From Thermoplasmata archaeon (GTDB taxonomy: Archaea; Thermoplasmatota; Thermoplasmata; Lutacidiplasmatales; UBA184), in contig JAKIVU010000005.1 in the NCBI GenBank assembly GCA_022750375.1, positions 4,288-68,287 on the forward strand: DNA of 64,000 nucleotides, in the 5' to 3' direction. The notes beneath the pieces were generated by a model. That model saw only the letters and a list, made by a program, of their open reading frames with translations, was not told where the DNA came from and made no database searches. A program made the position numbers and the translations under genes. Shown here in pieces: positions 13,592-63,332 of this stretch. Each line of letters starts with the position of its first letter. Position 1 is the first letter of the stretch.

Positions 13592-13995
13592 GTCCGGGCC
13601 TCGAGGTCGTCGAGGCGGCGTCGGACATAGTCGCTAAACTCGGCGGCGGAGAGGCGGGCAATCGAGTCCATCTCCCCGGACGACCGGCTCTTCAACTCGG
13701 GCGTCGGTCCCAGTCGTTCGATCCGGTCGAGGGTCGAGATCAGCTCCTCACGACCGAAGCGCCCGGACCGAAAGCCGTAGCGGAACGGGGGGATGTCCCT
13801 CTCGGAACGGTACGGGGCGACGGCGACTCTCGCCGGCGGGCGGTCGACCCACGCGCTGAGGAACAACAACCCCGCCGCGACCACCGCAGCGGCGGCAGCC
13901 ACCGCGGAGATCGCGAGGTTCGGCCCGGCCCAGAGCGCGAGCCCCGTCGCCGCCACCGCGACGGCGATCAGCCCGCCGGCGAACCAGTAGTTCAT
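13588..13995 (-). CDS. small membrane protein (MoxR operon)
   Basis: 135 aa with two TM helices. ATGA and GTGA overlaps with both neighbours indicate translational coupling. Confidence 0.6.
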   Translation of the reverse strand: MNYWFAGGLIAVAVAATGLALWAGPNLAISAVAAAAAVVAAGLLFLSAWVDRPPARVAVAPYRSERDIPPFRYGFRSGRFGREELISTLDRIERLGPTPELKSRSSGEMDSIARLSAAEFSDYVRRRLDDLEART

Positions 13996-24614: not shown

Positions 24615-24997
24615 CGAGACCGTCGGCGCGCCACCGGTGCGGGGTTTCTAATCCTTTCTCCCCGGACATCGACGCTCGCTGTCCGCTCCGTGACACCCGC
24701 AGGGCTCGGGATCGGTCGATGTGCACCGCCTCAAGCGCGAAAGCTTTGGTAACGATCCGGGCGGATGGGCCGCGGAACGGAAGCGATTGGATTGATCCGA
24801 GGACTTGCCGGTTCGTTCGTCTGCGCTTTACCTAGCCAGTTCTAGCGCCTTGTCGAAGACGGGATCGCGCCCGGAACTATAATCGTCGAAAGTCGGCTCG
24901 ACCTCGATCTCCGGCGTCAGCGAGATGCCAACCTTCGGTCCCCAAACGACATTCGCCCAAAAGTAACGGTCCAGGTCCGATCCTGCCTTGCTCCAGT

Positions 24998-25025
24998 CCG
25001 AGAACTATCGTCTGCACAGAAACTC
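24998..25025 (-). repeat. island-specific intergenic repeat module, copy 1 (AGTTTCTGTGCA + GTTCTCGG)
   Basis: The minus strand reads GAGTTTCTGTGCAGACGATAGTTCTCGG. The same two-part module occurs at 28493-28520 on the plus strand. Confidence 0.6.
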
Positions 25026-25134
25026 GCGGGGATGCGCACAAACCCCTGCCGCCGCACTGAAACCCGTGCCCTCCACAGGTGAGAGATGGGATGCGCTGTA
25101 GCCCACGTTGCGGCTACCCCAGCGGTGAACGGAG

Positions 25135-25548
25135 CTAAGCGAACTCACCCTTGGGCCGGAGGAACTTCACGACGTAACCGTCGGGGTCGTTGATAGTGAA
25201 CGCCTTCCCGTACGGCCAGTCGCGGAGGCCCGACTCGATCTTTACCTTGGCTTTCTTCGCTCGCGCGTAGACCTTCTCGACGCTTCGGAGCTCGACGTTG
25301 ACGATGACGCCGCCGCCCAGCGGACCCTTCACCCAATCGTGATAGTCACTGTAGCCGCCACCGGTGGCTCCCGCCTCCCAGATTCGGCCGAGCGCGATGA
25401 CCGCGCCCCCCATCCCGACACCCGCATAGTCCAGTTTGCCGTCGTCGCCATTCCAAGCCCATCGAGTGTCGAACCCGAGCGCCTGGTAGAACTTCACTGA
25501 GCGTTCGACGTTCTTGACGTTGAACATGACGCTGATCTCCGCCTTCAC
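25135..25548 (-). CDS. VOC/glyoxalase-family protein
   Basis: 137 aa. VKNVERSVKFYQALGF and TINDPDGYVVKF. Lower G+C than the core genes. Confidence 0.75.
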   Translation of the reverse strand: MKAEISVMFNVKNVERSVKFYQALGFDTRWAWNGDDGKLDYAGVGMGGAVIALGRIWEAGATGGGYSDYHDWVKGPLGGGVIVNVELRSVEKVYARAKKAKVKIESGLRDWPYGKAFTINDPDGYVVKFLRPKGEFA

Positions 25549-25605
25549 CTACTTTTCCTCCGACGCGGGTGCACTACCGAGAGCCCTGCACATTAAGTCC
25601 TACAT

Positions 25606-25635
25606 AGAAAATAGTTCTCGGTCAAAGCCGTCGGC
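25606..25635 (+). repeat. island-specific intergenic repeat module, copy 2 (AGAAAATAGTTCTCGGTCAAAGCC)
   Basis: Aligns with 26296-26320 (AGAAAATCGTTCTCGGGCACAGC). Lies about 70-95 nt upstream of the ATG at 25702. Confidence 0.5.
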
Positions 25636-25701
25636 ACTCGGGGCCGCTTCGGGGCCGTTCCCGGAACCCGGGCTTAAGTCGTCCCACCGGTTTCCCGGCA
25701 C

Positions 25702-26184
25702 ATGCCCGAACGGGGCCACCGGATCTACGGGACCGCCACGGTGCGTGTCTCCCTAGTGATTCACGCCCCGTCGCGCTACGTGTACGAGTGGTGCACGGAC
25801 TATCGGAGCGACGACGGACGATTCTCGAACGGCCGCGCGAGTTACCGTGTGATCAAAATTTCGCCCCGCCGCGTGGTCCGGATTCGCGTTTCCCGGGGTT
25901 CTGGTCGCGATCCCAGCATCGCGGTCGAGTTGATTGGTCTCAATCCCCCCCACTCCTGGCACCTTGACCAGATCGACCAGACCGACCAGCAGTCCTTGGA
26001 CTACCGGGTCAGCGCCGTCGGCCGCGCGCGGACGCGACTTCAGCTGTTGAGCACCGAACGCTGGGTCACCCCGGAATTCCCGACCCGTGAAGCACTCCGC
26101 GCGCAGATCGCGAAGACGTGGGCCATGTTCGCCGTGGCACTCGAGGCGGACTATCGCGCCGGACGTCCCGCCCGGGGCAGGTGA
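25702..26184 (+). CDS. SRPBCC (START/polyketide-cyclase-like) superfamily protein
   Basis: 160 aa. VIHAPSRYVYEWCTDYR at the N-terminus and a long C-terminal helix, which is the typical SRPBCC layout. Confidence 0.6.
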   Translation: MPERGHRIYGTATVRVSLVIHAPSRYVYEWCTDYRSDDGRFSNGRASYRVIKISPRRVVRIRVSRGSGRDPSIAVELIGLNPPHSWHLDQIDQTDQQSLDYRVSAVGRARTRLQLLSTERWVTPEFPTREALRAQIAKTWAMFAVALEADYRAGRPARGR

Positions 26185-26270
26185 ACAGTCGTCGACGGAA
26201 CGACCGCGCGTCGTCCGAGTTCTACTCACCTCTCCGCGATCCCCACCGGCGTTCCCCATCGACGCCTCCC

Positions 26271-26392
26271 TGCGCAGAAACTAGCACCCCTTCACAGAAA
26301 ATCGTTCTCGGGCACAGCTTTGCGCTCCGGCTTTGCACCGCAACTAGTTTCTGTGCAGGGGCTTCCGTGCAGGGTCCGTAGTTCCTGTGCAG
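26271..26392 (+). repeat. cluster of island-specific repeat units, including an inverted pair TGCGCAGAAACTAG / CTAGTTTCTGTGCA
   Basis: TGCGCAGAAACTAG at 26271-26284. AGAAAATCGTTCTCGGGCACAGCTTTGCGCTCCGG at 26296-26330. CTAGTTTCTGTGCAG at 26344-26358. Further ..CCGTGCAG and GTTCCTGTGCAG units run to 26392. Confidence 0.6.
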
Positions 26393-26665
26393 CGGTGGGT
26401 GGCACCGAGCGCCTAAGCCCGGAAGTGTCGTTCAAAATCCGATCGGTCGCTAATCAATCTCTCGGAGCGCGCCGGTTGTTTCGTCTATGACTCCGAAATG
26501 ATTCGAGTGCAGCCTTGCGTCTCGCGCAGTCTATCCGTCGTGGCCAGTCACAGGCAGAGTCGCGCTTAACAACGGCCACCGTCTCAATGACTGACTCCGT
26601 CCGCGGCGTAACTGGCGTGGAGGATGGAGTGATATTCCAGTGGGCCATGTCTTTGACGGTGTGCA

Positions 26666-27785
26666 ATGGTCACGGGGCCATCCGGCCTCTTCGCTAAACT
26701 GTATTTGGCCGGGAATCCGCGACCAGTCTTAGCAGTGATTACAATTGTTGTTCTCGTGTTTGGCGCGATCGTCGGCGGTGTGAAACGTGCCGCAGCGTCC
26801 ACCGCCTTGCCTGCAGGTTGCTCACCGGACGCCGTTTCAGCGGCAGGGTACAACCTCTCCTCGACCGTTAACACGACCCAAGTCCTGAACGAGGCACTAT
26901 CTGCCGGCAGCCTTGTCGCGGAGACCAGCGGATTCCCTTCCCCTCAAAATCTCTCGTACGGCAGCACCTTTGAAATTTGGAACTTCACAGCACCAGTCTG
27001 CGTACCAATAATCCAGACTACCAACGCGGTCTTCTCGGGCCAAGTTGACGGCCAACCGTTTAATCTGGTAGTCTCTGAGAACCCCACGTCCACGGCGATC
27101 GAAAGTGTTTCCCTGCAGTCCGCGGGACTCTCAGACCCGAGTCACACTCCGAGCCTTTACGCAGGTTACGGTGTCAAGTCTACGAATAGCCCATCCGGTA
27201 AATGGACAGTTTCTACTGTGACCCTTCCCTCGGGCGGTTGTTTCAACTATTGCGACATTGACCCGTGGATCGGCCAGTCTCCCAACGCCAGCGGAACCGC
27301 CGGGATTTCCCAAACGGGAACCGAATCCGAAATTGAAGTCGTAACTGGGTGTTGTACTATCTATTCATATTATGCGTGGTACGAGTTTTGGCCTGGAACG
27401 GCTACAACCTGTTTCTCCGGGCGATGCGATCAAGGCAGAGTCAGGATATTCTGGTACGACGTACACTACAACCTTGCTCGACGTTTCATCGAACACGGGC
27501 TGCACCGCGAGCGACTCAGCAGGGTTCATTCCGAGTCCTGACGATGCGATCTTCGTGGAGGAGGAGCAGTATAGTTCCGCTTGCGGTTGCTATTTGGGCA
27601 CCCCGGTTTTCACGACATTTGACTTCGACGACCTGGTCGTCGGTGCCACTGGTGATCTAAACTCGTTGAGGCCAGCCCCCTTCCAATACAACACCGCAGG
27701 TAACGTTGGGATCGGCCCTTTAACTTACGATAATCACACGTGCGTAGTCCATGTCGACAGTTGCTTTGACGAGTACTACACGTAG
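26666..27785 (+). pseudogene. glutamic peptidase G1 (peptidase A4/eqolisin family) interrupted by a +1 frameshift near 27401-27411
   Basis: ORF 26666-27541 carries a signal anchor, DPWIGQS...ISQTG and YYAWYEFWPG. The family pattern continues in ORF 27372-27785 as VSPGDAIKAES...LLDVSSNTG...DAIFVEEEQ...TFDFDDL. The two frames join if one nucleotide is skipped after ACA ACC (27404-27409). Confidence 0.65.
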
Positions 27786-27800
27786 GAGCGGTGTGAGTAC

Positions 27801-28358
27801 ATGGATACCGTCAACGTTCGAGGGACGATGCGCATCGGCCCGCCGCCGATGCCGACAATATTCGCGTTTATCGGTCTCGTGATGATCTGCCTCGCTGTTG
27901 TTCTAACCCTTGTCACGCCGTGGGCCATCCAAGCGTCAAACCTACCACTCGGGAGCTTCGAACCGATCGTTCTGGCCCCGCTTGGCAGCTTGATGGCCGG
28001 GTCGCTACTACTTGCGCTCGGAGCCAGTGCCTACATCCGATCCCTTCGGCACCAGGCGACCGACTCAGCTGGTCCGGTGGGGTCGTTTCGCCAGCGGCGG
28101 CGCGATATCGCGCTCAAATCGACTATCTTCGGAGTGGTCCTTGGAGGCGGACTCATACTGCTCGGCTACCAGATCGTCTCCCCAGCGACCTGTGTTGCGC
28201 TCACTCATGGGCCTTACGCTTGCATGATTCCGAGTGCGGTTGCCGAGTTGTCTCTCGTGCTCATGTCGGGGGGTGTCGTGGCGCTGGGCTTGGGTATAGT
28301 GATTGGCGCCTTACTCGCGAGACCACAAATTAAAATGCGATCGAGGACTTCTTCATAG
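27801..28358 (+). CDS. membrane protein, unknown function
   Basis: 185 aa, ATG start, four TM helices, lower G+C. Confidence 0.55.
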   Translation: MDTVNVRGTMRIGPPPMPTIFAFIGLVMICLAVVLTLVTPWAIQASNLPLGSFEPIVLAPLGSLMAGSLLLALGASAYIRSLRHQATDSAGPVGSFRQRRRDIALKSTIFGVVLGGGLILLGYQIVSPATCVALTHGPYACMIPSAVAELSLVLMSGGVVALGLGIVIGALLARPQIKMRSRTSS

Positions 28359-28474
28359 CACGGCCGCGACCCCGACTGAAGACCAATCAATCACTGGACC
28401 GCGATGGTGCTTCCCTAGTTATGGTGGGGCCGTTGGGTAATGAAGCGGCGCTCGGCGGATGCGACCCCAAATAG

Positions 28475-28540
28475 GGTTCCTGTGCGGCCCAGCTAGTTTC
28501 TGTGCACCGAAGTGTTTTCGGGCAAAGCCTTGCGCTCCGC
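28475..28540 (+). repeat. island-specific repeat units (GGGTTCCTGTGCGG, CTAGTTTCTGTGCA, GTTTTCGGGCAAAGCCTTGCGCTCCGC) ending in an 8-bp perfect hairpin
   Basis: Same units as at 26271-26392 but in a different order. GCCTTGCG-CTC-CGCAAGGC (28526-28544) is a perfect inverted repeat. Confidence 0.6.
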
Positions 28541-28546
28541 AAGGCG

Positions 28547-28552
28547 TAAATA
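28547..28552 (+). promoter_or_regulatory. TATA box for rpoK
   Basis: GTAAATAC: the TAAATA core lies 27-32 nt upstream of the ATG at 28579. Confidence 0.45.
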
Positions 28553-28578
28553 CGGTGCCTTGAGTGGGCGACCCCTTG

Positions 28579-28836
28579 ATGGCCGCATCGACTCCCGCGG
28601 CCTCGGGGAGTGTTATCGTGCCCGAGCATCCGGTGCCGGCCCCCCTCGAGTCCAGCGATTTCACTCGGTTCGAACGGGCGCGCATCCTCGGGGCGCGCGC
28701 ACTCCAGCTGTCGTTGGGGGCTCCGATCCTTATCGACGTCCTCGCCACGCTGGTCGACCCGGTCGAGATCGCCGAGGCGGAGTTCGCGGCCGGGCGCATC
28801 CCGATCACGGTCCGCCGAGGCCCGCGCTCCAGTTAG
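28579..28836 (+). CDS. rpoK: DNA-directed RNA polymerase subunit K (Rpo6/omega-like)
   Basis: [21 protein letters not shown] is the conserved Rpo6 core. The ATG at 28579 is preferred over the GTG at 28564 used by the track. Confidence 0.85.
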
Positions 28837-29627
28837 ACTCCGGCGTCGTCCAGCGCGTGAGCGCATCGACAGGTCGGCGGCCGCACCAGTCGCGGCATCA
28901 GTTCCGTCAATATCCGTCGCATGCGCTCGGCGTTTCGGTGCATCACCTCGACGATCTCCTTCGCCTCCACCGGTCGGTCCGCCCAGACGTCGTAGTCCGT
29001 GACCATGGCGAGGCAGGCGTAGCAGATCGCGCGTTCGCGCGCGAGCGTGACCTCGGGGACGAGCGTCATTCCGATCACGTCCGCGAACGTCCGGAAGAAC
29101 GCCGACTCGGCCCGCGTGCTGAACCGGGGCCCTTCCACGCAGACGTACGTCTTCCCCTCCGCGAACGGCGCGCCGATATCCCGGCCGACGCCCGCCGCGG
29201 TGGCGGTAAGGTCCGGACAGAACGGGTCGGCGAGCGAGACGTGATAGACGCGGCCCCCGTCGAAGAACGTCGTCGGTCGCTGTCGGGTGAGGTCGACGAA
29301 CTGCTGCGGGAGCACGAAGGTCCCCGGCGCCAACTCCTCCTTGAGCGACCCGACCGAGCTCACGGTCACGATCGCATCCGCACCGAGCGACCGGAGCGCG
29401 TCCACGTTCGCACGGTAGTTGATCCGATGCGGAGGGATGGAGTGGCCCGGCCCGTGTCGAGCGAGGAACAGTACCCGCACGCCGCGGACGTCCCCTTCTT
29501 CCACGAGGCCGGACGGAGCGCCCCACGGAGTCGACACCCGGTGGGATTTGACCGCGCCCTCTCCGAAGATGCTCGAGATCCCGGAACCGCCGATCACGCC
29601 GATCGCGCGCCGCGCCGGGGCGCTCAC
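28833..29627 (-). CDS. mtnP: S-methyl-5'-thioadenosine phosphorylase
   Basis: 264 aa. [25 protein letters not shown] and VGMTLVPE blocks of the MTAP/PNP family. Confidence 0.85.
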
Positions 29628-45802: not shown

Positions 45803-47458
45803 ATGGCCGGCGGATCCGTACGAGTGAAGATCCCTCGGGCCGGTGTGCCCGAGGCCGAAACCTCCCCCCTCGACACCTCCCGCTCCCTCGAGACCCCGAC
45901 CGACGTGCCGGGGACGTTCATCACGGCGATGCCCCCGCTCCCGGAGCCGACGATGAAGGAGCTCGAGGTGAACGCGGTGAACCCGCCGTACTCGTACTCG
46001 CGCGTCAGCTACAACGACCGGACGAAGGAGTACCTCTACGAGGTCATCGAACCCCAGCTCACGCCCCGCGAACGCCAGCTCGTCGACCACCTGAAGGCGA
46101 CGTTGTCGATGATCCTGGGCAGCGACGTCGGCACCCTCTCGACCGCCGACAAACGCCTGTACCTTCGGGGAGAGGCGGAGGAGTACTTCCGGAGCCGGGG
46201 GATCTCGCTCAGCCCGATCTCGATGGAACGGATCGTCTACTACGTGCTCCGCGATTTCGTCGGGTATGGGCCCGTCGACGCGTTGATCCTGGACCCCCAG
46301 GTCGAGGACATCTCGTGCGATGGCGTCGACGTCCCGTTGTTCATCTTCCACGGAAAGTACGAGTCGATGAAGACGAACGTCGTCTTCGCGGACGAGAACG
46401 CCACGAACTCGTTCATCGTCATGCTCGGCCAGCGGTGTTCGAAGTCCGTCAGCGTCTCCGCCCCGATCCTGGATGGGACGACCCCCGAGGGCCACCGGGT
46501 CCAGGCGACGTACGCCCGGGAGATCACGACCCGGGGAGCGAGCTTCACGATCCGCCGATTCAAGGAACGGCCGTTCACCCCCGTCGACCTCGTCGTCATG
46601 GGCAGCGCCAGCGAGGAGATGGTCGCCTACTTCTGGCTCGCGGCCGAGCAGGGGGAATCGCTCATCATCTGCGGCGGGCCGGCCGCGGGGAAGACCAGCA
46701 CGCTCAACGCCATCGCGCTCTTCATTCCCCCGACCGCGAAGATCGTATCGATCGAGGATACCCGCGAGGTCAACCTTCCGCACGAGAACTGGATCCCCGG
46801 GGCCACCCGCAGCGGCACCGGCGACCGCGGCCCCGACGGGAAAGCCGCGGGGGAGGTCGACATGTTCGACCTCGTTCGAGCCGCCCTGCGGCAGCGCCCG
46901 AACTACATCATCGTGGGAGAGGTCCGGGGCAAGGAGACGTACACCATGTTCCAGGCGATGGCGACGGGCCACACGACCTACTCGACCATGCACGCGGACA
47001 GCGTGAAATCGATGGTCAACCGGCTCGAGAACCCGCCGATCAACACGCCGCGGATCCTCCTCTCCGCCCTGAACAACGTCATCATCCAGATCCAGACCCG
47101 CACCGACAAGGGCGTCGTCCGGCGCCTGAAGCAGGTGCTCGAGATCGTCGGGTTCGAACCCGAGACGAACGAGCTGATCACGAACACCGTCTACGAGTGG
47201 GACCCCGCGACCGACGGATTCGTGTTCAAGGGGCACTCGTTCCTGTTCGACAAGATCATGGAACTCAAGAACTTCACACCGGACGAGATGGAGGCCGAGT
47301 TCCAGCGCCGGAGCGCGGTCATCCGATACCTCGTCCAGCACCAGATCACCGACTACCGTCAGCTCTGGCGGACGATCGCGCAGTACTACCGGGACCCGGC
47401 CGAGGTCATGGCGCGGATCGGTGCGTTGAGCGCCACCGCCACCCCCAAGGAGGGATAG
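45803..47458 (+). CDS. type II/IV secretion-family ATPase (FlaI/PilB/TadA-like), copy 1
   Basis: 551 aa. Walker A ICGGPAAGKTSTLNA, IVSIEDTREVNL, Walker B IIVGEVRGKE, and His box TTYSTMHA. Confidence 0.9.
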   Translation: MAGGSVRVKIPRAGVPEAETSPLDTSRSLETPTDVPGTFITAMPPLPEPTMKELEVNAVNPPYSYSRVSYNDRTKEYLYEVIEPQLTPRERQLVDHLKATLSMILGSDVGTLSTADKRLYLRGEAEEYFRSRGISLSPISMERIVYYVLRDFVGYGPVDALILDPQVEDISCDGVDVPLFIFHGKYESMKTNVVFADENATNSFIVMLGQRCSKSVSVSAPILDGTTPEGHRVQATYAREITTRGASFTIRRFKERPFTPVDLVVMGSASEEMVAYFWLAAEQGESLIICGGPAAGKTSTLNAIALFIPPTAKIVSIEDTREVNLPHENWIPGATRSGTGDRGPDGKAAGEVDMFDLVRAALRQRPNYIIVGEVRGKETYTMFQAMATGHTTYSTMHADSVKSMVNRLENPPINTPRILLSALNNVIIQIQTRTDKGVVRRLKQVLEIVGFEPETNELITNTVYEWDPATDGFVFKGHSFLFDKIMELKNFTPDEMEAEFQRRSAVIRYLVQHQITDYRQLWRTIAQYYRDPAEVMARIGALSATATPKEG

Positions 47459-49433: not shown

Positions 49434-51206
49434 ATGGCAGGATCGGTCGCACCCCAACCCGAGGGCTCGGAGCCGGACGTGCCCGAGCCCGAGGAGATCC
49501 CCGCGGCGCGCAAGCGCAGTTCCTCCTCGGCGTGGCTCCGCCTCGGCGCCTCCATGCGCAAGGGGTCGTCCGACCCCCGCCCCGTCAAGCTCGCCCGACT
49601 CGGCGTCTCGGGCCAGGGCAGTCAGGGGGAGATCACCCCGATCCCTCCGCTCAACGACCCCGGTCTGAAGGAGCTCGATCTGGCCCCGATCCGTCCCGGT
49701 GTCTCGTTCATCCGGATCACGTACCACAACACGCGGAACGAGTACCTCTACGAGGTCATCGAGCCCCCGCTCTCCCCGATCGAGAAGGACCTGACCGAAC
49801 GGCTCCGGATCGTGCTCATCGACGACTTCCAGCCGCTCACCGAGATCGACCCCGAGTCGAAGCGTCGGGAGCTGCGTCGGATGGTCGACCACAAGCTCCA
49901 GGAGTGGGAGCTCGGCCCGGGCCCGACCACCAAGGGCCGGATCCTCTACCACCTCGAACGGGACTTCATCGGCTACGGGATCGTCGACGTCCCGATGACC
50001 GATACCGAGGTCGAGGACATCTCGTGCGACGGGGTCGGCATTCCCCTGTTCATCTACCACCGGAAGTACGGCTCGATCCGCTCGAACATGAAGTTCCACG
50101 ACTCGAAGGAGCTCGACGACTACGTCGTCTGGCTCGCCCAGCGGTCGGGGAAGCACATCTCCGTCGCGAGCCCGATCCTGGACGCGACCGTCCCGGACGG
50201 CTCCCGTCTCCAGGCGACGCTCGGAACCCACGTGACGAAGCGCGGCAGCTCGTTCACGATCCGCAGGTTCCGCGACAATCCGTTCACGCCGGTCGACCTG
50301 CTCAAGTTCAAGACGATGAGTCCGGAGATGATGGCGTATCTCTGGATCTCGATCGAGAACGGCCAGTCGATGATGGTCTGCGGCGGCACGGCGAGCGGCA
50401 AGACCACGACCCTCAACGCGACCCTCCTGTTCATCCCGCCGCAGATGAAGATCGTCTCGATCGAGGATACCCGCGAGCTCAACCTGCCGCACGAGAACTG
50501 GGTGCCGTCCCTTACGCGCGCCGGGTTCGGCGCGAAGAACCTCACGAGCGGGAAGGCCCCCGGCGAGATCGACATGTTCGACCTGCTGGCGGCGGCGCTC
50601 CGTCAGCGCCCCCAGTACCTGATGGTCGGAGAGGTGCGGGGCGCGGAGGCGTTCATCGTCTTCCAGGCGATGGCGACGGGGAAGACCTGCTACACCACGT
50701 TCCACGCGGAGAGCGTCAGCGCGATGGTCCACCGGATGGAGAACCCGCCGATCTCGCTGCCGCGCTCGCTCGTCTCGGCGCTGAACCTCGTGCTCCTCCA
50801 GCGGCAGGTGAAGGTCGGGACGAAGATGACCCGGCGCGTCCAGTCGCTCACCGAGATCGTCGGTCTCGACCCCGAGACGAACGAACTGATCACGAACTCC
50901 GTCTACTCGTGGAACCCCGCGGACGACACGTTCCTCTACAGCGGCCACTCGTACGTCTACGAGCGGGTCGCGATGATGAAGAACCTCTCGATGAAGGAGA
51001 TGGAGCGCGAGGTCCGCAACCGCGCAGAGATGATGGAGTACCTCGTCTTCCGTGACGCGCAGGCGACCCGCCTGAAGCCGTTCACGCACCGCGACGTCGG
51101 CCAGCTGGTCGCCTTCTACTACAAGGAGCCGGAACGGGCGCTCTCCGAAGCCCGCGCCGAGCTCGCGAAGGCGAAATCGGCGGCGCCGGCCCCCGCGGCG
51201 CGATAA
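49434..51206 (+). CDS. type II/IV secretion-family ATPase (FlaI/PilB/TadA-like), copy 2
   Basis: 590 aa. Walker A VCGGTASGKTTTLNA, IVSIEDTRELNL, LMVGEVRGAE and TCYTTFHA. Clearly paralogous to 45803-47458 along the whole core. Confidence 0.9.
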   Translation: MAGSVAPQPEGSEPDVPEPEEIPAARKRSSSSAWLRLGASMRKGSSDPRPVKLARLGVSGQGSQGEITPIPPLNDPGLKELDLAPIRPGVSFIRITYHNTRNEYLYEVIEPPLSPIEKDLTERLRIVLIDDFQPLTEIDPESKRRELRRMVDHKLQEWELGPGPTTKGRILYHLERDFIGYGIVDVPMTDTEVEDISCDGVGIPLFIYHRKYGSIRSNMKFHDSKELDDYVVWLAQRSGKHISVASPILDATVPDGSRLQATLGTHVTKRGSSFTIRRFRDNPFTPVDLLKFKTMSPEMMAYLWISIENGQSMMVCGGTASGKTTTLNATLLFIPPQMKIVSIEDTRELNLPHENWVPSLTRAGFGAKNLTSGKAPGEIDMFDLLAAALRQRPQYLMVGEVRGAEAFIVFQAMATGKTCYTTFHAESVSAMVHRMENPPISLPRSLVSALNLVLLQRQVKVGTKMTRRVQSLTEIVGLDPETNELITNSVYSWNPADDTFLYSGHSYVYERVAMMKNLSMKEMEREVRNRAEMMEYLVFRDAQATRLKPFTHRDVGQLVAFYYKEPERALSEARAELAKAKSAAPAPAAR

Positions 51207-56079: not shown

Positions 56080-56799
56080 ATGGCCGACAAGGAAGGCCCG
56101 GCGAAGAAGCCGGCGATGGCCCGGACCGTCAAGGACAAGTGGCGGTCGAAGCACTGGTTCAAGGTCCGCGCCCCCGGTCTCTTCCAGCACGTGGAGCTCG
56201 GCGAGACGGTCGCGACCGAACCCGAGCAGGTGATCGGCCGCACGCTCGAGACCACGCTTCCTGAACTGTCGGGCGGCGGAGATTCCGGGAAAGCCCACAT
56301 CAAGCTGCGGTTCCGCATCGAGCGCCTCGGCGGCGATGGGGTCGCCGAAGCCCGGTTCATCGGCCACGAGCTGACCTCCGACTACGTCCGCCGGCTCGCG
56401 CGCCGGAAGCGTTCCAAGATCGATCTGTCCCTCACCGTGACCACGAAGGACGGGGTCCAGATCATCCTGAAGCCGGTGGCGGTCGGCGAGCAACGACTCC
56501 AGACCCGGCTCCGCGCCGAACTACGCCACAAGATGGTGTCGATCCTCCTCGAGGAGGCCGCGAAGCGGTCGTCTCCCGAGTTCGTCCGGGAGATGCTCCA
56601 GGGGGAGCTCTCGAAAGTCCTCGCCCATGGGCTGAAGACACTCTATCCGCTGAAGAAGATCGAGATCCGGCGGTCGGAAGTGCTCGGCACGATCGCGGAC
56701 GAGCTCCCGTTGCCCGAACCGACCGCCCTTCCCGAGGTGCCGACGGCCCCCGACGCGGTGGCCCCGGTCGCCGACGGCGGGGACGCCACGGTAGCGTAG
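56080..56799 (+). CDS. rps3ae: 30S ribosomal protein S3Ae (eS1)
   Basis: 239 aa. VKDKWRSKHWFKVRAP, GRTLETTL and SDYVRRLARRKRSKID blocks. Confidence 0.9.
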   Translation: MADKEGPAKKPAMARTVKDKWRSKHWFKVRAPGLFQHVELGETVATEPEQVIGRTLETTLPELSGGGDSGKAHIKLRFRIERLGGDGVAEARFIGHELTSDYVRRLARRKRSKIDLSLTVTTKDGVQIILKPVAVGEQRLQTRLRAELRHKMVSILLEEAAKRSSPEFVREMLQGELSKVLAHGLKTLYPLKKIEIRRSEVLGTIADELPLPEPTALPEVPTAPDAVAPVADGGDATVA

Positions 56800-56833: not shown

Positions 56834-56935
56834 GTCGGAGTGGCTCAGCCCGGTAGAGCACGGGACTCATAGCGGGACGCGCTACGCGTCCCGGGAGAGA
56901 TCCTGGGGTCGGGGGTTCAAATCCCCCCTCCGACA
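56834..56935 (+). tRNA. tRNA(CAU), elongator Met or Ile2, with a 28-nt intron at 37/38 (intron 56872-56899)
   Basis: Acceptor GUCGGAG/CUCCGAC, D-arm GCUC-AGCCCGGUA-GAGC, anticodon stem CGGGA/UCCUG with CU-CAU-A, T-arm GGGGG-UUCAAAU-CCCCC, discriminator A. The intron contains the hairpin GGGACGCG-CUA-CGCGUCCC. Confidence 0.85.
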
Positions 56936-57116: not shown

Positions 57117-57470
57117 TCAGCGGTCGTCGAATCCGTACTTGTGGAGTTGCTCGGGTATTGGCAGGTCCGAAGGCTGGTTGAAATCGATCCCTGTGATCTC
57201 TTTCATCTGTTGCTTGAACCAGAGATCGAACGGGTCGGTTGACAACGCCCACGCTCGGAAGGACTTGGGAATGTCCGGGGCCTCTGCATAGTAGACCATC
57301 AGGACCCCATTCGGTGTGGTGAGCAGGAACTGAGTGTCCTTCTCGAACCCGAACCGCTTGGAGGAGGCGTCGTACTCTGCATATCTCGGGCCGGCGAGCT
57401 GGTTAAGGAGGGTTCTCAGCGCCTCCCTCTTACCGGGGAGCACAGGAAAAACCGTCGCGTACTGGGCCAC
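57117..57470 (-). CDS. small conserved protein of unknown function, paralog 1
   Basis: 117 aa, GTG start. More than half identical by eye to 57607-57966 (FPVLPGKREALR.LL..LAGPRYAEYDA...DPFDLWFK.Q.K.ITGID.NQPS). Confidence 0.7.
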   Translation of the reverse strand: MAQYATVFPVLPGKREALRTLLNQLAGPRYAEYDASSKRFGFEKDTQFLLTTPNGVLMVYYAEAPDIPKSFRAWALSTDPFDLWFKQQMKEITGIDFNQPSDLPIPEQLHKYGFDDR

Positions 57471-57606: not shown

Positions 57607-57966
57607 TCATCGATCGTCGAAGCGGTACTTGTGGATCTGCTCGGGCCATGGCCCTTCGAAATTCGAGGGTTGGTTGTAATCGATCCCCGTGATGTCCTTC
57701 AACTGTTCCTTGAACCAAAGGTCGAACGGGTCGTTGCACGTCGCCCAGTCTCTCCAAGCCTTCGGAATGTCCGCGCCTTCCCCATAGTAGATGATGAGGA
57801 CCCCCTGCGGGGTGGTTTGCAAGAACCAGGTGTCCCGTTCGAATCCCCATCGCCGCGAGGCCGCATCGTACTCGGCGTATCTTGGGCCGGCCAGAGCCTT
57901 TAGCAGGTTCCGCAGCGCCTCCCTCTTGCCGGGAAGCACCGGGAATACCATCGCCCATTGGGGCAT
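57607..57966 (-). CDS. small conserved protein of unknown function, paralog 2
   Basis: 119 aa, ATG start. Tandem duplicate of 57117-57470, including its upstream TATA region. Confidence 0.7.
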   Translation of the reverse strand: MPQWAMVFPVLPGKREALRNLLKALAGPRYAEYDAASRRWGFERDTWFLQTTPQGVLIIYYGEGADIPKAWRDWATCNDPFDLWFKEQLKDITGIDYNQPSNFEGPWPEQIHKYRFDDR

Positions 57967-58087: not shown

Positions 58088-61000
58088 TCACGCCGGCGGC
58101 CGCGCCTTCCGGGCTCGCACGCGTTCGATGTCCCGGCCGGCCCGGAGTTGGGTGAACAGTTCCAGGGCCTCGTCGAACGCACGGCCGGCGCTCCTCGAAT
58201 CCTTTGACTGTTCGTAGGCTACGCCGAGCGTGTACAAGGTCAGGGCCAGCTCGTACGGCCACCCGGCCTGTTTCCACCAGGTCACCGCCTCTTCGAGCGC
58301 GCGGATCGCATCCTGTGTCTGTCCTCGATGGGTCTCCCACGCGGCCCTAGCCCGCAGGGCAAGGCCTCGATTCGCCGGCACCGGGATTCGATCCGCGATC
58401 CGGTCCAGTCGTTCACGGAAGAGGGACGCGCGACGCTCGGCCTCCGCGCGGTCCGGAAGACTCAGGGAGACGGTGACGGCACGAGCGAGTGGCAGTGCCC
58501 AGAGCGTCGCTAGGATAGCGGGATATCCCCTCCGGTCGCAACGGACGATGCCGGACTCGAGGGCTGCCAAAGCGCCGGTGGGGTCTCCTCGCTCTTCTTG
58601 GAGCCACCCGTCCAAATAGCTCTCGTAGACGGCCTGCGCGGTGTCGGGACCCATCCGGAGCAACGTCCTCGTCGAGTCGAGCAGGGCCGCGGCCTGGTCC
58701 AGATTTCCCGCCATCAGCTCGAGATGGGCCCGGACCTCGGAGTTTAGAACGTTCGGGATCCCAACCTCCTGGTGAAATTGCGCTCCCGCTCGGGCACCGG
58801 CGGCCGCGCGGTCGACCTCCCCGGTCAACAACAAAACAATCGGCAACTGGGTCCCCTCGAATCCCATCTCGCTTCCGCGATCTCGAATTCGTTGGCACCA
58901 TCGAATTCCCTCGTTTATCGTACCGATCCCACCGACGGTATCGCCGTCCATCCACACCATTCCCCAAACATACTGCCATAGAACCGAGGGACCATCCACC
59001 AGGTTCTGCCGGCGCGCCAGCTCCAAGGCCGCGATGAGATTGCGGCGAGCTGTCTCCCGGCCTTCGGGGGGTTCGAGCCAAGCCAAGTCAACGAGCGCCT
59101 TCGCCTCAAGGTCGGATGCATGGGTGGCGCGCGCGACCGAAAGTGCTTGCTCTAGGAGCGCCCGCGCCGAGGGAAGTTGAGGGAGCTCCATTTCTGCGGC
59201 CACAGCCCCGAGGTGAAGGCAAAGGTCCGCATGCAACCGGCTCTCAGGCTCGCTTTCGACGAGCGCCCGGGCCTGGAGCATGAGGGCAAGGCCCTCCTCG
59301 AACGACCGTAACATCCATGCACGAATGGTGCCCGCCGCGAGCAGATTCGACCCGGCCGAGATGCGCTCGCCGAGCTCTTCGTACAGTCGAGCGGCCTCTT
59401 CCAGTCGGCTCGCGGCCGAGGAAAATTGCGCTAGAAACGGTGCTTCGTGACCCAGTGACTCCAGCAGGCGGGCGCGTTCCAGATTTTGCTCACGGGAGCG
59501 GCCCCGGCCCGACCCTTGGAGCTCGTTCATCAATTCGAGAGCGGTCTCATAGTATCGGATTGCCTCCTCGTGGGCGAAGACCGCAGCAGCTTGGTGCCCC
59601 GCGATGGCCGAGTACTGGAGAGCTTTCGGACGATCGTTTCCCCGACAGAAATGTTCACTGAGTTGGGCGGCGATCGCGTCCGGGTTACCGGCGTGCTTCT
59701 CCTCCAGTAGTCGGGCGACCTTCAGATGAAGCCGCTGGCGACGGGCGAGCGAAAACTCCCGGTAAAGGACCGCGTGGGTTTCGTCGTCGGCGAACCGGTA
59801 CATCGGGTGGCCCGGTTCATACTCCCTCTCCCGGAGCAGTCGGGCTCGAAGAAGTTCCTCGACGGAACGGATCAGCGACTCCTCCTCCATTCCGCTCAGG
59901 TGGAGGAGGAGGTCGAAGTCGATTTCCCCCCGGAGGACCGAGGCGGTGGAGAGAACGGCACGGGATTCCTCGCTAACCCGGCCGACCCGACGCAAAATGA
60001 GCTCCCGCATCGACGAAGGGATCCCGACGTCCGTGGTGAGCTGCACGGTCCAACCTTCGGGGCGGCGAACCAGTTGCTGTTCCTCGACCATGGACCTTAG
60101 GAGCTCCTCGGCGAACAGCGGATTCCCCCCGGTTCGCTCATGGACGATGCCCACTAGGCCTGGGAGCGGGGCCTCTCCGCTGAGAATCGCGGAGACGAGG
60201 CGTTGGGACGGCTCCGCGGACATCCGTTTGACCGGAACGTCCTGGAGCAGGTGTTCCTTTCTCAGTTCGGAAAGCATGGCACGAAGATGATCACTTTCCG
60301 TGACGTCAGAATCGCGATGGCTGAGAATCAACAGCAGACGAAGGGACGGTACCTGTCGCGCCAGGTACTCGATCAATCGGAGCGAGGCGGCGTCGGCCCA
60401 CTGGATATCGTCAAGGAGGAAGAGCAACGGACCTTCCTGGGAAAGGTTCCGGACAAACTGCGTAACACCCTCAAAAAACGCCAGCCGGGCCTGTTCGGCT
60501 TCGAGCGCCGCCGGTGAGGGACTCGGGCCCACGCGGTCGACCAGCTCCGGGACCAGCTTCACCACCGCAGCCTGACACTTGGTGCACAGCTTGTACAGCA
60601 ATGGGTCGGGCGCGTCCCGGACAAAACCCCGGATCGCTTCGGCCCACGGACCGTACGGGATGTCGACCTGGTCTTGAATTCCCCGCCCGTGGAGGGTGCG
60701 GAACCCCTTGGCGCTCCCGCGTCGAATTGTCTCTTCGGCGAGGCGCGTCTTCCCGATCCCGGGCTCCCCGGAGAGTGCGATCACTTGGCCACGGCCAGCG
60801 GCAGCTTCTTTGAGGGCTCCGTTTAGGGTCTCTACCTCCGCCTCGCGGTCCGTCCAAGGAGTGATCCGGGCGGCGGAGGGTCCGTGCCAGGGAAGGTCGA
60901 CGCTGTAGACGGAAATCGGGGTGTCGATGTTCTTCAGGAATGCGTGCTCGAGCTGGATGCACGAGTAGGGCACTTTGTTCCGAACCTGGTCGAACACGGG

Positions 61001-61402
61001 ACCGCTGATACAAATCCCCGAGGTCTCCGCGAGGGGCTCGATGCGCGCAGCGATGTTCACCGCATCTCCGAGGAGGTCGCCCGCTTGGTCGACGACGTCG
61101 CCGAGGTGGATCCCGATCCGCAGCTCCACTCGATCGGATGCGGAACGCTCGTTGTGTCCGAGGAGCGTGCGCTGCACGTCGATTGCGCATTCTAGGGCCT
61201 GTAGCGCACTGGGGAATTCAACGAGGAACCCGTCACCCATTCGGTTGACCTCTCGGCCACCATGAGACTGGAAGACCGGACGCACGAGCGCCCGCTGGAC
61301 TCCCAGAAGATGGATGGCCAGGGGCTCGTCCCGCTGGGCGAGAGCCGAGTAGCCCACCATATCCGTGAACATGATGGCGGCGAGACGACGGGTCGGAGCC
61401 AC
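58088..61402 (-). CDS. class III adenylate/guanylate cyclase domain - STAND/AAA ATPase - TPR repeat protein
   Basis: 1104 aa. N-terminal cyclase core (AAIMFTDMVGYSAL...MGDGFLVEF...IGIHLGDV...GDAVNIAARIE). P-loop LSGEPGIGKTRLAEE and Walker B LFLLDDIQWAD. C-terminal about 550 aa of TPR-like helical repeats. Confidence 0.85.
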   Translation of the reverse strand: MAPTRRLAAIMFTDMVGYSALAQRDEPLAIHLLGVQRALVRPVFQSHGGREVNRMGDGFLVEFPSALQALECAIDVQRTLLGHNERSASDRVELRIGIHLGDVVDQAGDLLGDAVNIAARIEPLAETSGICISGPVFDQVRNKVPYSCIQLEHAFLKNIDTPISVYSVDLPWHGPSAARITPWTDREAEVETLNGALKEAAAGRGQVIALSGEPGIGKTRLAEETIRRGSAKGFRTLHGRGIQDQVDIPYGPWAEAIRGFVRDAPDPLLYKLCTKCQAAVVKLVPELVDRVGPSPSPAALEAEQARLAFFEGVTQFVRNLSQEGPLLFLLDDIQWADAASLRLIEYLARQVPSLRLLLILSHRDSDVTESDHLRAMLSELRKEHLLQDVPVKRMSAEPSQRLVSAILSGEAPLPGLVGIVHERTGGNPLFAEELLRSMVEEQQLVRRPEGWTVQLTTDVGIPSSMRELILRRVGRVSEESRAVLSTASVLRGEIDFDLLLHLSGMEEESLIRSVEELLRARLLREREYEPGHPMYRFADDETHAVLYREFSLARRQRLHLKVARLLEEKHAGNPDAIAAQLSEHFCRGNDRPKALQYSAIAGHQAAAVFAHEEAIRYYETALELMNELQGSGRGRSREQNLERARLLESLGHEAPFLAQFSSAASRLEEAARLYEELGERISAGSNLLAAGTIRAWMLRSFEEGLALMLQARALVESEPESRLHADLCLHLGAVAAEMELPQLPSARALLEQALSVARATHASDLEAKALVDLAWLEPPEGRETARRNLIAALELARRQNLVDGPSVLWQYVWGMVWMDGDTVGGIGTINEGIRWCQRIRDRGSEMGFEGTQLPIVLLLTGEVDRAAAGARAGAQFHQEVGIPNVLNSEVRAHLELMAGNLDQAAALLDSTRTLLRMGPDTAQAVYESYLDGWLQEERGDPTGALAALESGIVRCDRRGYPAILATLWALPLARAVTVSLSLPDRAEAERRASLFRERLDRIADRIPVPANRGLALRARAAWETHRGQTQDAIRALEEAVTWWKQAGWPYELALTLYTLGVAYEQSKDSRSAGRAFDEALELFTQLRAGRDIERVRARKARPPA

Positions 61403-61574
61403 GGCTCGAAATCCGCTCCCGTTAGATTAAGTCCCGGTCCTGAAACAGGTGTGAGTCAACTCAGTGGGCAAAGCTCACCTCGCGCCCAGTAAGCCCAACC
61501 GTATCTGGTAGTCTTGCGATCGCGATTTCTTGATGTCGTGTAGTCCCGTATTCGCGCTTTCTTGCGGACCCCAT

Positions 61575-61635
61575 GTCGGGGACATGAAGAATTCAGTAGT
61601 GTCCCCCTCCGACACCCTTAGTCGATTCCGGGAAG
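61575..61635 (+). repeat. tRNA(CAU) 3'-half-like structured repeat, copy A
   Basis: GTCGGGGACA-TGAAGAATTCAGTAG-TGTCCCCCTCCGACA followed by CCCTTAGTCGATTCC. Shares the hairpin and CCTCCGACA core with copies B and C and with the tRNA 3' end. Confidence 0.75.
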
Positions 61636-61682: not shown

Positions 61683-62231
61683 ATGAACGAACACCCCGGC
61701 ACCGAACCGAGGATAGTCATCCGTCGAATTGTGGAATCGGATAGGAATGCGTTACGAGAATTGCGCCTTCGGGCCCTAACTACGGACCCAATGTCCTTTG
61801 CATCCACGTTCGACCGGGAATCCAGAGACGACGGCGCGAAATGGACCGATTGGGCGCACCGTGGAGCTGTTTCCCCCGAAATGGCGGTCCTCGTGGCCGA
61901 GCAGATCAACGGCCCGCTGATCGGGATGGTGGGCGCGTTGTCGGAGGAAGATGTCACTCACATCTACGGGATGTGGGTCGAGCCAGGCCACCGGAACCTC
62001 GGCCTGGGAGGGAAACTACTCGACGCGATTCTCGCATGGGTGGAAACGTCTCACCCATCGTCCGAAGTTCGTCTGGGAGTTGTACCTTCCTCCGATTCAG
62101 CGGTGCGCCTTTACCGCAGCCGGGGGTTCGTTCCGAGCGGGAAGGTCGAACCCCTTCCGCACACCCCAGGAGTGGTGTGGCATGAGATGGCCCTACTACG
62201 CAAGGGATCGAATCCGTCGTCAGAAGGGTGA
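61683..62231 (+). CDS. GNAT family N-acetyltransferase
   Basis: The ATG at 61683 gives a 182-aa protein. IRRIVESDRNALRELRL and the acetyl-CoA motif VEPGHRNLGLGGKLLDA. The upstream part of the track ORF merely reads through repeat A. Confidence 0.8.
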   Translation: MNEHPGTEPRIVIRRIVESDRNALRELRLRALTTDPMSFASTFDRESRDDGAKWTDWAHRGAVSPEMAVLVAEQINGPLIGMVGALSEEDVTHIYGMWVEPGHRNLGLGGKLLDAILAWVETSHPSSEVRLGVVPSSDSAVRLYRSRGFVPSGKVEPLPHTPGVVWHEMALLRKGSNPSSEG

Positions 62232-62313: not shown

Positions 62314-62394
62314 GTACGGGAACTGAAGAATTCAGTAGTGTCCCCCCCGACATCTCTCACCGATTTATCGCCGGGAGTCGACGAAGTTCGACCA
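62314..62394 (+). repeat. tRNA(CAU) 3'-half-like structured repeat, copy B
   Basis: GTACGGGAAC-TGAAGAATTCAGTAG-TGTCCCCCCCGACATCTCTCACCGATTTATCGCCGGGAGTCGACGAAGTTCGACCA. 42 of 48 positions identical to copy C from CCGACA onward (hand alignment). Confidence 0.75.
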
Positions 62395-62531
62395 ACATGA
62401 TGGCGGCAAGTCCGCGGGCGGAGGTCCCGCCTCGAGAATGGTCTTTCTTGGATTGAGCCCGGGTCACTGGAGGCGCCGGATTCGACTGAGGGGGCCTTTC
62501 CTGGAGATGATGGGCGGCTAAGGGACCAGGG

Positions 62532-62789
62532 TTACCGGCCGTAGATTCGCGACCGGTGATCCACGCGTTCGACCAGAATGGTCTGTTCTGCGTGGGAGAG
62601 CACGGCCAGGAGGCGATAGCTGCCGATACGAAGCTTGAACTCGTCCGAGCTCGCCAATCTCGTGAAATAGTGGGTCGGGGCCAAGGCGGCTGCCTCGAGA
62701 CGAGTTACAACCCTTCGGGCTACCGTTCGATCGAGTTTGTGCAGATCGCGAACAGCGGTGTCCGACCACTGGATCGACCACGCCGTCAG
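62532..62789 (-). CDS. relE: RelE/ParE-family type II toxin (no canonical start codon; CTG overlapping the antitoxin stop proposed)
   Basis: Hand translation of a frame not listed in the track: (L)TAWSIQWSDTAVRDLHKLDRTVARRVVTRLEAAALAPTHYFTRLASSDEFKLRIGSYRLLAVLSHAEQTILVERVDHRSRIYGR, with TAA at 62532-62534. This is the classic RelE pattern (KLRIGSYRLL...V.HRS.IY). Confidence 0.7.
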   Translation of the reverse strand: MTAWSIQWSDTAVRDLHKLDRTVARRVVTRLEAAALAPTHYFTRLASSDEFKLRIGSYRLLAVLSHAEQTILVERVDHRSRIYGR

Positions 62790-63022
62790 AGGCCCAACCG
62801 CTTCTTGACCTGCTCGTGCGCCGTTACCCGGCCCGACCGGATGTCCAGTCTGGCGTTCAGCAACCCCATCCGAAACGCATCGCTGTATGTTCCTTCATCG
62901 TCTCCCTGCGGGACTAGGGCCAGCAGCTTGTTCAGGAGCTCATCGTAGGTCTCGCGCGGCGAGCTTTTCAATGCGGCCAGCCGCTCGCGGGTGGTCGGTG
63001 TAACTTGGATAGTCGTGATCAT
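62786..63022 (-). CDS. antitoxin partner of the RelE-like toxin (small N-terminal DNA-binding-type domain)
   Basis: 78-80 aa (ATG 63022 or TTG 63028). MITTIQVTPTTRERLAALK..., located immediately upstream of and overlapping the toxin frame. Confidence 0.65.
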   Translation of the reverse strand: MITTIQVTPTTRERLAALKSSPRETYDELLNKLLALVPQGDDEGTYSDAFRMGLLNARLDIRSGRVTAHEQVKKRLGL

Positions 63023-63048
63023 TGGCAATGGGATAGCGTATGGTCACC

Positions 63049-63118: not shown

Positions 63119-63200
63119 GTCGGGGATATGAAGAATTCAGTAGTGTCCCCCTCCGACATCTTTCGCCGATTTATCGCCGAAAAACGACGAAGTTCGACCA
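63119..63200 (+). repeat. tRNA(CAU) 3'-half-like structured repeat, copy C
   Basis: ATCCTTCCGGTCGGGGATA-TGAAGAATTCAGTAG-TGTCCCCCTCCGACATCTTTCGCCGATTTATCGCCGAAAAACGACGAAGTTCGACCA. 38 of 50 positions identical to the tRNA 3' end plus flank (56929-56978) by hand alignment. Confidence 0.8.
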
Positions 63201-63332
63201 TTTGTCTGGAGGGGATCTGAACCCGTCAACGGTCGTTCCAGAAAGGGCTAGTTGATCGACCGTAGGGGGTGCGTCCTAGGTCGGGTGCCGCCCTGAGGCG
63301 GGGATTCGGGAACCTCCGCCCCCCTTCAGGGT

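Follow-up and report, generated by a model that had tools for sequence, protein, structure and literature searches.

A predicted class III nucleotide cyclase fused to a STAND NTPase and a TPR array in a tRNA-linked island of a soil Thermoplasmata archaeon

A 64,000-nucleotide stretch of contig JAKIVU010000005.1 (C13:4288-68287; hereafter the window), from a soil Thermoplasmata metagenome-assembled genome (MAG) of 0.93 Mb and 69% completeness, carries at positions 58088..61402 on the minus strand a gene whose 1104-amino-acid (aa) product joins a nucleotide cyclase domain of class III to a signal transduction ATPase with numerous domains (STAND) NTPase and an array of tetratricopeptide repeats (TPR). 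The reading frame is unbroken over its 1104 codons, from a GTG start at 61402 to 58088. Some orthologs are annotated by gene callers elsewhere as starting at Met11, but the RRLAAIM stretch before it is kept in relatives and forms the first strand of the domain, which favours the GTG start. Pfam matches were obtained for Guanylate_cyc at residues 8–141 (43.1 bits, cut-off 21.9), AAA_16 at residues 183–359 (98.4 bits, cut-off 32.6) and TPR_12 at residues 1015–1084 (39 bits, cut-off 30.1). A helix-turn-helix (HTH) or LuxR (GerE) domain was not matched in the Pfam search of the 1104-aa protein at E<=0.1, and the C-terminus is composed of TPR helices, in agreement with an earlier reading of the DNA (the first-pass annotation), which had seen no LuxR HTH; the cyclase and NTPase motifs quoted there are likewise all present in the translation. 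NCBIfam gave sub-threshold partial matches only, to TOMM kinase/cyclase and LipJ. The TOMM kinase/cyclase fusion (TIGR03903) was rejected as an assignment: it reached 179.7 bits of the 705.75 needed, over profile positions 330–930 only, and the protein has no kinase domain.

The AlphaFold2 model of the 1104-aa protein, built on 64 homologs, has a mean predicted local distance difference test (pLDDT) score of 90.4 and is composed of an alpha/beta cyclase domain, a P-loop nucleotide-binding oligomerisation domain (NOD), helical and winged-helix parts and a run of repeat helices. A low-confidence linker spans residues 171–185, the P-loop domain spans residues 187–365, and the helical and winged-helix parts continue to about residue 570. 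When the model was compared with the PDB by Foldseek, the STAND-TPR protein 6mfv ranked first (E 4e-11), followed by the cyclases 3mr7, Ma1120 and Rv1900c and then by Apaf-1. Since the Pfam matches, the AlphaFold2 model and the Foldseek search agree, the cyclase-STAND-TPR architecture read at first pass is considered real, with TPR-like helices covering about 530 aa. The database holds homologs of the protein in number, with 1399 hits.

The cyclase homology domain (CHD; residues 1–175, 60878..61402, minus strand) matches the class III nucleotidyl cyclase profile (PF00211) and has the CHD fold. The best PDB matches by phmmer are 3mr7 (1.4e-29), Ma1120 (6e-16) and Rv1900c (2.5e-13), and the Foldseek TM-scores of the domain to these three, normalised on the target, are 0.82–0.89. 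The motifs FTDMVGYS (residues 12–19), MGDGFLVEF (55–63) and GDAVNIAARIE (112–122) lie within this domain. The catalytic positions were compared in an alignment of 121 database relatives with 3mr7 and Ma1120 (123 sequences), in which the metal ligands Asp14 and Asp57, Arg95, the base-contacting Asp109 and the transition-state residues Asn116 and Arg120 are all present and conserved. The metal Asp pair is found in 117–123 of the sequences, Asn116 in 92 and Arg120 in 120; D14, D57, N116 and R120 line up with the same residues in 3mr7, and with D, D and R in Ma1120. The degenerate cyclase that the first-pass annotation had allowed for, one missing key metal-binding or transition-state residues, is thus not what the alignment contains.

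The position that specifies the purine is the exception. In Ma1120, adenine is contacted by K101 and D157, and guanylyl cyclases have Glu in place of the Lys and Cys, Ser, Thr or Gly in place of the Asp (PMC4215837). In the alignment, Asp109 is the equivalent of Ma1120 D157, and the position of K101 is taken by Asn53, so that the claim of a full catalytic core holds for every catalytic residue named above and fails for the purine-specifying Lys. The Asn53–Asp109 pair is neither the canonical Lys–Asp pair of adenylyl cyclases nor the substrate pair of guanylyl cyclases. Lys occupies this position in 100 of the 123 sequences, including all Thermoplasmata orthologs of 40–47% identity, and Asn53 is restricted to the six closest clusters, that of the query included (76–100% identical). 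The active adenylyl cyclase Rv1900c reportedly also carries an Asn–Asp pair at these positions, a lead only; if so, Asn at this position allows synthesis of cyclic AMP (cAMP).

The P-loop NOD (AAA_16, residues 183–359; 60326..60856, minus strand) contains a Walker A motif, GEPGIGKT, at residues 212–219 within the P-loop stretch GEPGIGKTRLAEE (212–224), and a Walker B motif, LLLDD, at residues 328–332 within LLDDIQWAD (329–337). G212, G215, G217 and K218 of Walker A and D332 of Walker B are invariant in 64 full-length homologs. In the helical and winged-helix part that follows (residues 360–570; 59693..60325, minus strand), G426, N427 and P428 of the GGNP motif (425–428) and His559 of the "ETHAVLY" strand-turn in the winged helix show little or no variation in the same 64 homologs, and the model places beta strands and hairpins at 444–453 and 523–537. 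We take these Walker, GxP and winged-helix His motifs to be hallmarks of MalT/AfsR-type STAND ATPases. By sequence and predicted fold the module is a STAND NTPase of the MalT/AAA_16 clade, with a P-loop NOD, a GxP motif, a winged-helix His and a putative C-terminal repeat sensor. The latter (residues 571–1104 with the stop codon; 58088..59692, minus strand) is modeled as 26 consecutive helices over residues 574–1100. The same MAG encodes, on contig C4, two AAA_16 plus MalT-TPR paralogs that match TPR_MalT and have no effector domain, and sister orders contain many such effector-less STAND-TPR proteins and no cyclases.

Selection on the gene was estimated by the Nei-Gojobori method as the ratio of nonsynonymous to synonymous substitution rates (dN/dS) against three orthologs, at dS of 0.74–0.98. 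The whole-gene ratio is 0.16–0.17, and it rises along the protein from 0.07–0.09 in the cyclase domain through 0.10–0.12 in the NOD and winged helix to 0.21–0.24 in the TPR region, the fastest-evolving part. The cyclase domain is the most constrained part and is therefore not a decaying pseudo-cyclase. A slow-changing output joined to a faster-changing sensor would fit a gated cyclase.

Within the host's genus, class III cyclases are abundant. PF00211 is matched in 18 of 25 genus genomes, with 1–14 copies each, whereas among 16 genomes from the remaining genera of the order and class a single one has a match. A broader sample of the class gave matches in 21 of 251 genomes, which fall in 7 of 81 genera, and multi-copy sets are confined to the query's genus. 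The statement that class III cyclases are uncommon in archaea thus holds for the class and not for this genus. The copies in the genus are for the most part cyclase-TPR proteins some 650 aa long. About 9 of the 24 sister genomes encode a full-length cyclase-STAND-TPR ortholog, and in one of these alone (G016) it is of the Asn53 type, at 76% identity. The named relatives are all "Thermoplasmata archaeon" MAGs. In a quick maximum-likelihood tree of 112 cyclase domains, whose loci were picked with peptide patterns from the query so that sampling is biased to close relatives, the query falls inside a Thermoplasmatota group (SH-aLRT 85) and its nearest relatives are all Thermoplasmata; Nitrososphaerota sequences group elsewhere, as does a bacterial mixture that includes Verrucomicrobiota and Binatota, and phylum labels change 18 times on this tree versus 56 times when shuffled. 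Because the tree places the query among Thermoplasmatota, the family is resident and expanding in soil archaea, and the gene is no fresh bacterial import. In support of the first-pass reading, the distribution is patchy, with an ortholog of more than 70% identity in just 1 of the 24 sister genomes, and the GC content of the gene is low.

The cyclase gene is followed downstream on the minus strand by two small genes. Small protein B (119 aa, 57607..57966), whose gene comes directly after it and which was recognised by neighbour conservation and its AlphaFold2 model, is a DUF6176-like protein of ferredoxin-like alpha+beta fold (pLDDT 93), and small protein A (117 aa, 57117..57470), recognised by alignment and a DUF6176 match, is its paralog at 72% identity. 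B and/or A follow Asn53-type orthologs on three other contigs (L096, L097, L005) whose wider context differs, with identities across these loci of 93–97% for B and 92% for A, above that of the cyclase gene itself. No such genes are linked to Lys-type orthologs. The DUF6176 match of A is modest (E 0.0055), and 36 of 60 relatives match DUF6176; A and B belong to the DUF6176 superfamily. An exhaustive search recovered 1014 relatives of the small protein (a word-indexed search, 8), many of which join two domains in a fused protein of about 240 aa. Because many distant relatives carry both domains in one polypeptide, A and B probably form a heterodimer. A PDB sequence search with the small-protein profile returned noise only and a fold search was needed, which gave fucose/rhamnose mutarotases, ABM monooxygenases and polyketide cyclases as the nearest folds (TM-score 0.6–0.7, weak E-values). 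The most that can be inferred from sequence and model is that the pair may act as a small-molecule-handling heterodimer.

These three genes belong to an island that the first-pass annotation had described as tRNA-linked, with the cyclase gene as its largest cargo beside tRNA-derived repeats. Both points are upheld. The anchor is an intron-containing tRNA(CAU) at 56834..56935 on the plus strand (Rfam RF00005, 57 bits, E 1.4e-10) whose anticodon loop holds a 30-nt insertion; this match overturned an ARAGORN result of no tRNA near the gene, and blastn-short found no partial copies of two ARAGORN tRNA-Gly genes. The gene rps3ae (56080-56799) lies directly before the tRNA, a junction that is conserved in the genus. 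A repeat made up of the last 12 nt of tRNA(CAU) and up to about 65 nt of its 3′ flank recurs at four places and nowhere else in the MAG. Copy C (61575..61627, plus strand; repeat families D6/D7/D10), a tRNA-3′-end-like minihelix plus flank, lies 173 nt upstream of the cyclase start and forms the outer border of the cyclase module; copies B (62314..62394) and A (63119..63222), both on the plus strand and found by repeat search, follow, and the fifth copy of the sequence lies outside the window at C13:72749-72844. The internal copies also bear a GTCGG...CCGAC minihelix whose loop contains GAATTC. From the tRNA to the contig end, which falls inside the island, GC is 0.624 versus 0.677 +/- 0.017 in 15-kb windows of the genome; the cyclase gene, at 0.643, sits at the 6.5th percentile of genome windows, and its GC at third codon positions (GC3) is 0.74 versus about 0.85–0.9 in core genes. 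No integrase is found in the island, the only PF00589 gene of the MAG being on another contig.

The repeats divide the island into modules. The first holds the two DUF6176-like genes and the cyclase gene, and is a portable module in the tRNA-proximal slot of a variable island. The second is a GNAT acetyltransferase gene (61683-62231, plus strand; Acetyltransf_1, 2.9e-14), divergent from the cyclase gene in its own repeat-bounded module; unlike the mycobacterial cAMP-regulated acetyltransferase, its product has no cyclic nucleoside monophosphate (cNMP)-binding domain. The third contains a DUF7557/ParE toxin-antitoxin pair and the remnant of another cyclase gene, of which the first 12 or so codons (..RGLAAIM; 62394..62440, minus strand) are preserved as direct repeat D16, 74% identical to 61368-61409. 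This remnant is cut off exactly where repeat copy B begins, which suggests recombination or deletion at the repeat. The toxin-antitoxin pair (62532-63028, minus strand) consists of a DUF7557-type antitoxin of 80 aa and then a ParE-family toxin (Pfam 5.9e-11) whose frame has no ordinary start codon before Leu34, and a second, similar small-gene pair lies on the contig at window-equivalent 69658-70219. The fourth module encodes CMD, ArsR-like and SRPBCC-like proteins and a protein of 1003 aa. Beyond the window, a masked stretch (N/X) occurs in the island at about 13175–13741 of G000:C13:60000-76383 (L104).

Cyclase genes recur behind tRNA(CAU) in at least five genomes of the genus, which marks the locus as a hot spot for them. 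Cyclase genes lie 1.5–3.2 kb behind tRNA(CAU) in G001, G003, G006 and G010, and in G001 (L118/L119, C27:286000-317000) seven of them fill about 26 kb behind it. In that genome a minihelix repeat (core TGAAGAATTCAGTAGTGTCCCC) stands some 170–200 nt upstream of several cyclase genes, as in the window. The locus looks like a long-standing cyclase hot spot and not a single recent acquisition. The minihelix was rejected as a general upstream element of cyclase genes: its core is found only in the tRNA(CAU) islands of G000 (the query genome), G001 and G007. Elsewhere in the window, positions 24000-29000 form a second low-GC stretch (0.58–0.63 versus about 0.69) with few high-GC3 frames, and two paralogous genes of about 72–75% DNA identity (45803-47458 and 49434-51206, plus strand) lie 3.7 kb apart in one plus-strand cluster. 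A still lower GC of 0.60 is found on contig C16 at about 23–45 kb.

Candidate readers of a cyclic nucleotide are present in the genus. The cNMP_binding domain (PF00027) is matched in 20 of the 25 genus genomes and in 0 of 16 outside it. The genus proteins are bare domains of about 130–150 aa with an intact phosphate-binding cassette, FGEMAL...RTA (FGEMALFDNEPRTADV), and these stand-alone proteins carry no HTH, transmembrane, TIR or killing-effector part. Distances between their genes and the cyclase genes were compared by hand, without a formal test. A cNMP-binding gene lies 158 nt from the end of a cyclase-STAND ortholog in G008, 281 nt from an ortholog in G018 and 331 nt from a cyclase gene in G014, and the two kinds of gene are about 2–7 kb apart in G003, G011, G016, G020 and G001. 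This co-occurrence and occasional adjacency support a writer-reader pair of cyclase and cNMP-binding protein at the level of the genus, which does not by itself identify the receptor in the query genome. The survey for cNMP-binding effectors proposed at first pass has thus yielded bare cNMP-binding proteins beside some genus cyclase genes and none in the query MAG.

From sequence and predicted structure, we hold it to be probable, with moderate confidence, that the gene encodes a soluble cytoplasmic, ligand- and ATP-gated class III cyclase for second-messenger signalling. STAND modules such as those of MalT and Apaf-1 oligomerise upon ligand binding and exchange of ADP for ATP. Bacterial class III cyclases act as homodimers, the active sites of which lie at the interface (PMC4174876). 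At rest, the NOD would hold ADP and the protein would be a closed monomer whose single cyclase domain is inactive, because class III active sites form only at a head-to-tail dimer interface. Binding of a ligand or partner protein to the TPR array would allow ADP to be exchanged for ATP and the STAND module to oligomerise, so that the N-terminal cyclase domains pair into dimers and convert NTP to 3′,5′-cNMP and pyrophosphate. As a single cyclase domain is fused N-terminally to a STAND switch, dimerisation and cNMP synthesis would depend on the sensor. Retention of the base-contacting Asp and of every catalytic residue makes cAMP the most likely product, though the base preference is uncertain owing to the replacement of Lys by Asn53. 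The predicted readers of this message are the small, stand-alone cNMP-binding proteins found alongside such cyclases in the genus. The first-pass idea of a cyclic nucleotide as output is supported.

Several points weigh against this proposal. With Asn53 in place of the adenine-specifying Lys, the product could be other than cAMP, or the activity could be low. The conserved adjacent genes encode DUF6176-like, small-molecule-type proteins and no known cNMP readers. PF00027 is unmatched in the query MAG, which is weak evidence because this MAG is 69% complete. In the literature searched, the gating mechanism is shown for no STAND-fused cyclase, and the role of the ATPase in Rv0386 of Mycobacterium tuberculosis is described as unstudied (bioRxiv 10.1101/2024.03.06.583649).

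The residue change and the small genes together lend themselves to another explanation, in which the cyclase domain with Asn53 has ceased to be a cyclase and functions in nucleotide binding or dimerisation, or else yields another product (a pyrimidine cNMP, for example), and the STAND protein serves mainly as a scaffold with the DUF6176-like pair. The Lys-to-Asn change is fixed in the subclade (6/6) while 100 of 123 relatives keep Lys, the tight link to the two DUF6176-like genes is seen only in this subclade, and the other STAND-TPR proteins of the genome have no effector domain at all. All residues for the chemistry are nevertheless kept (the two Asp, the Asn, the Arg and Arg95), in a domain under the strongest constraint in the protein, and we regard this explanation as unlikely. 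A compound proposal, that tRNA(CAU) is a dedicated landing pad for cyclase cassettes and that the Asn53 subclade with its DUF6176-like pair either produces or is responsive to some small molecule or non-canonical nucleotide, strikes us as somewhat less likely again. Under it, sensor-cyclase genes may be stacked and exchanged as cassettes, each bounded by a tRNA-acceptor/T-arm-like minihelix, in an island without an integrase; if true, the landing pad would be an undescribed, archaeal, integron-like way to diversify second-messenger sensors.

An immune role had been raised at first pass, by analogy with the general logic of prokaryotic NOD-like receptor (NLR)-type conflict systems. As an antiviral NLR/Avs-like STAND, the protein would sense a virus protein through its TPR and make a Pycsar-like alarm through its cyclase, and a separate effector would stop growth or kill. 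The effector-NOD-repeat layout shares the logic of Avs and bNACHT, the gene is patchily present among sister species, the variable island that holds it is of lower GC and contains ParE/antitoxin pairs, evolution is fastest in the sensor part, and the Pycsar cyclase model PycC is weakly matched at 23.7 bits. That match is generic, however: a higher score, 36.6 bits, is reached by 3mr7, a cyclase without any known role in defence, and the Lys-type paralogs score 16–23 bits. PADLOC gave no defence assignment for the cyclase gene or its small neighbours; no Avs, bNACHT or other STAND defence model was matched, only PDC-S73 at 12 bits over the P-loop. There is no cNMP-binding effector with a transmembrane, TIR or nuclease part beside the gene or in the loci of its orthologs, the TPR dN/dS of 0.2 indicates no diversifying selection, and up to 14 cyclase paralogs per genome resemble a sensory expansion, as in mycobacteria, and not a defence gene. 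The immune role is improbable on this evidence and is not adopted. Most improbable of all would be a recent bacterial import, silent or decaying, carried as cargo of an integrated element with no host role. The lowered GC3 and the tRNA-linked island with its truncated remnant of another cyclase gene agree with such an origin, but Thermoplasmata supply the nearest relatives, whether the cyclase domain or the whole protein is compared, four genomes have the frame intact and under purifying selection, and the island has no integrase.

A gated signalling cyclase would be of interest for archaeal second messengers. cAMP has been measured in archaea, but a 2023 review reports that no archaeal protein making, degrading or binding it has been characterised, and the archaeal CYTH "class IV cyclases" are triphosphatases (PMC10249747). 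With up to 14 class III cyclases and stand-alone cNMP-binding proteins, the genus supplies specific candidates for writer and reader. How a MalT/NLR-type switch gates a dimerisation-dependent enzyme could also be studied in a simple case with the STAND-fused copy. The copy matters as a candidate for archaeal cAMP synthesis that can be tested, and does not amount to a new principle.

The closest catalytic domains of known structure, those of 3mr7 (Ruegeria pomeroyi), Ma1120 (M. avium) and Rv1900c/LipJ (M. tuberculosis), share the metal, transition-state and Asp residues. Ma1120 and 3mr7 bear Lys (K101 in Ma1120; PMC4215837) where the query has Asn53, and the partner domain is an alpha/beta hydrolase in 3mr7 and LipJ and STAND-TPR in the query. 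In the remainder of the protein, the order of NOD, helical part, winged helix and TPR is shared with E. coli MalT and with 6mfv, the best whole-model match. We take 6mfv to be the PH0952-type STAND-TPR protein of Pyrococcus horikoshii. PH0952 has no enzymatic N-terminal domain and the output of MalT is DNA binding, whereas the predicted output of the query is a cyclase. With the defence systems the resemblance is one of fold and logic: PycC has a class III-type cyclase fold and Avs and bNACHT have the effector-NOD-repeat arrangement, but the query differs from Pycsar, Avs and bNACHT in having no specific model match or linked killing effector and in its multi-copy, sensory-type expansion in the genus.

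The nearest characterised layout is that of Rv0386 of M. tuberculosis (also Rv1358 and Rv2488c), in which a class IIIc cyclase is followed by an AAA/MalT-type ATPase, TPR and a LuxR HTH, and the comparison made at first pass stands. The query and Rv0386 have a cyclase homology domain, a Walker A P-loop ATPase and TPR in the same order and are of similar size (1104 versus 1085 aa), and the Asn–Asp pair of the query differs from the Gln–Asn pair cited for a side guanylyl cyclase activity in a passage naming Rv2488c (bioRxiv 10.1101/2024.03.06.583649). Unlike Rv0386, the query has an archaeal host and no C-terminal LuxR/GerE HTH, so a cyclic nucleotide would be its only output. The Gln–Asn pair is said to belong to Rv0386. 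The layout is not new: bacteria are known to have it, and it has been annotated in related archaea. HTH-less versions are numerous, many of them named by JGI: the "class 3 adenylate cyclase/TPR repeat protein" family (COG2114+COG3899-type; JGI and NCBI metagenome annotations) has the same three domains and length, and its members, including Thermoplasmata, Bathyarchaeia and Methylomirabilis records, are 24–47% identical to the query over 97–100% of the protein. What sets the query copy apart from this family is its Asn53 subclade of six clusters and the linked DUF6176-like pair, together with its tRNA-proximal slot in a repeat-delimited island.

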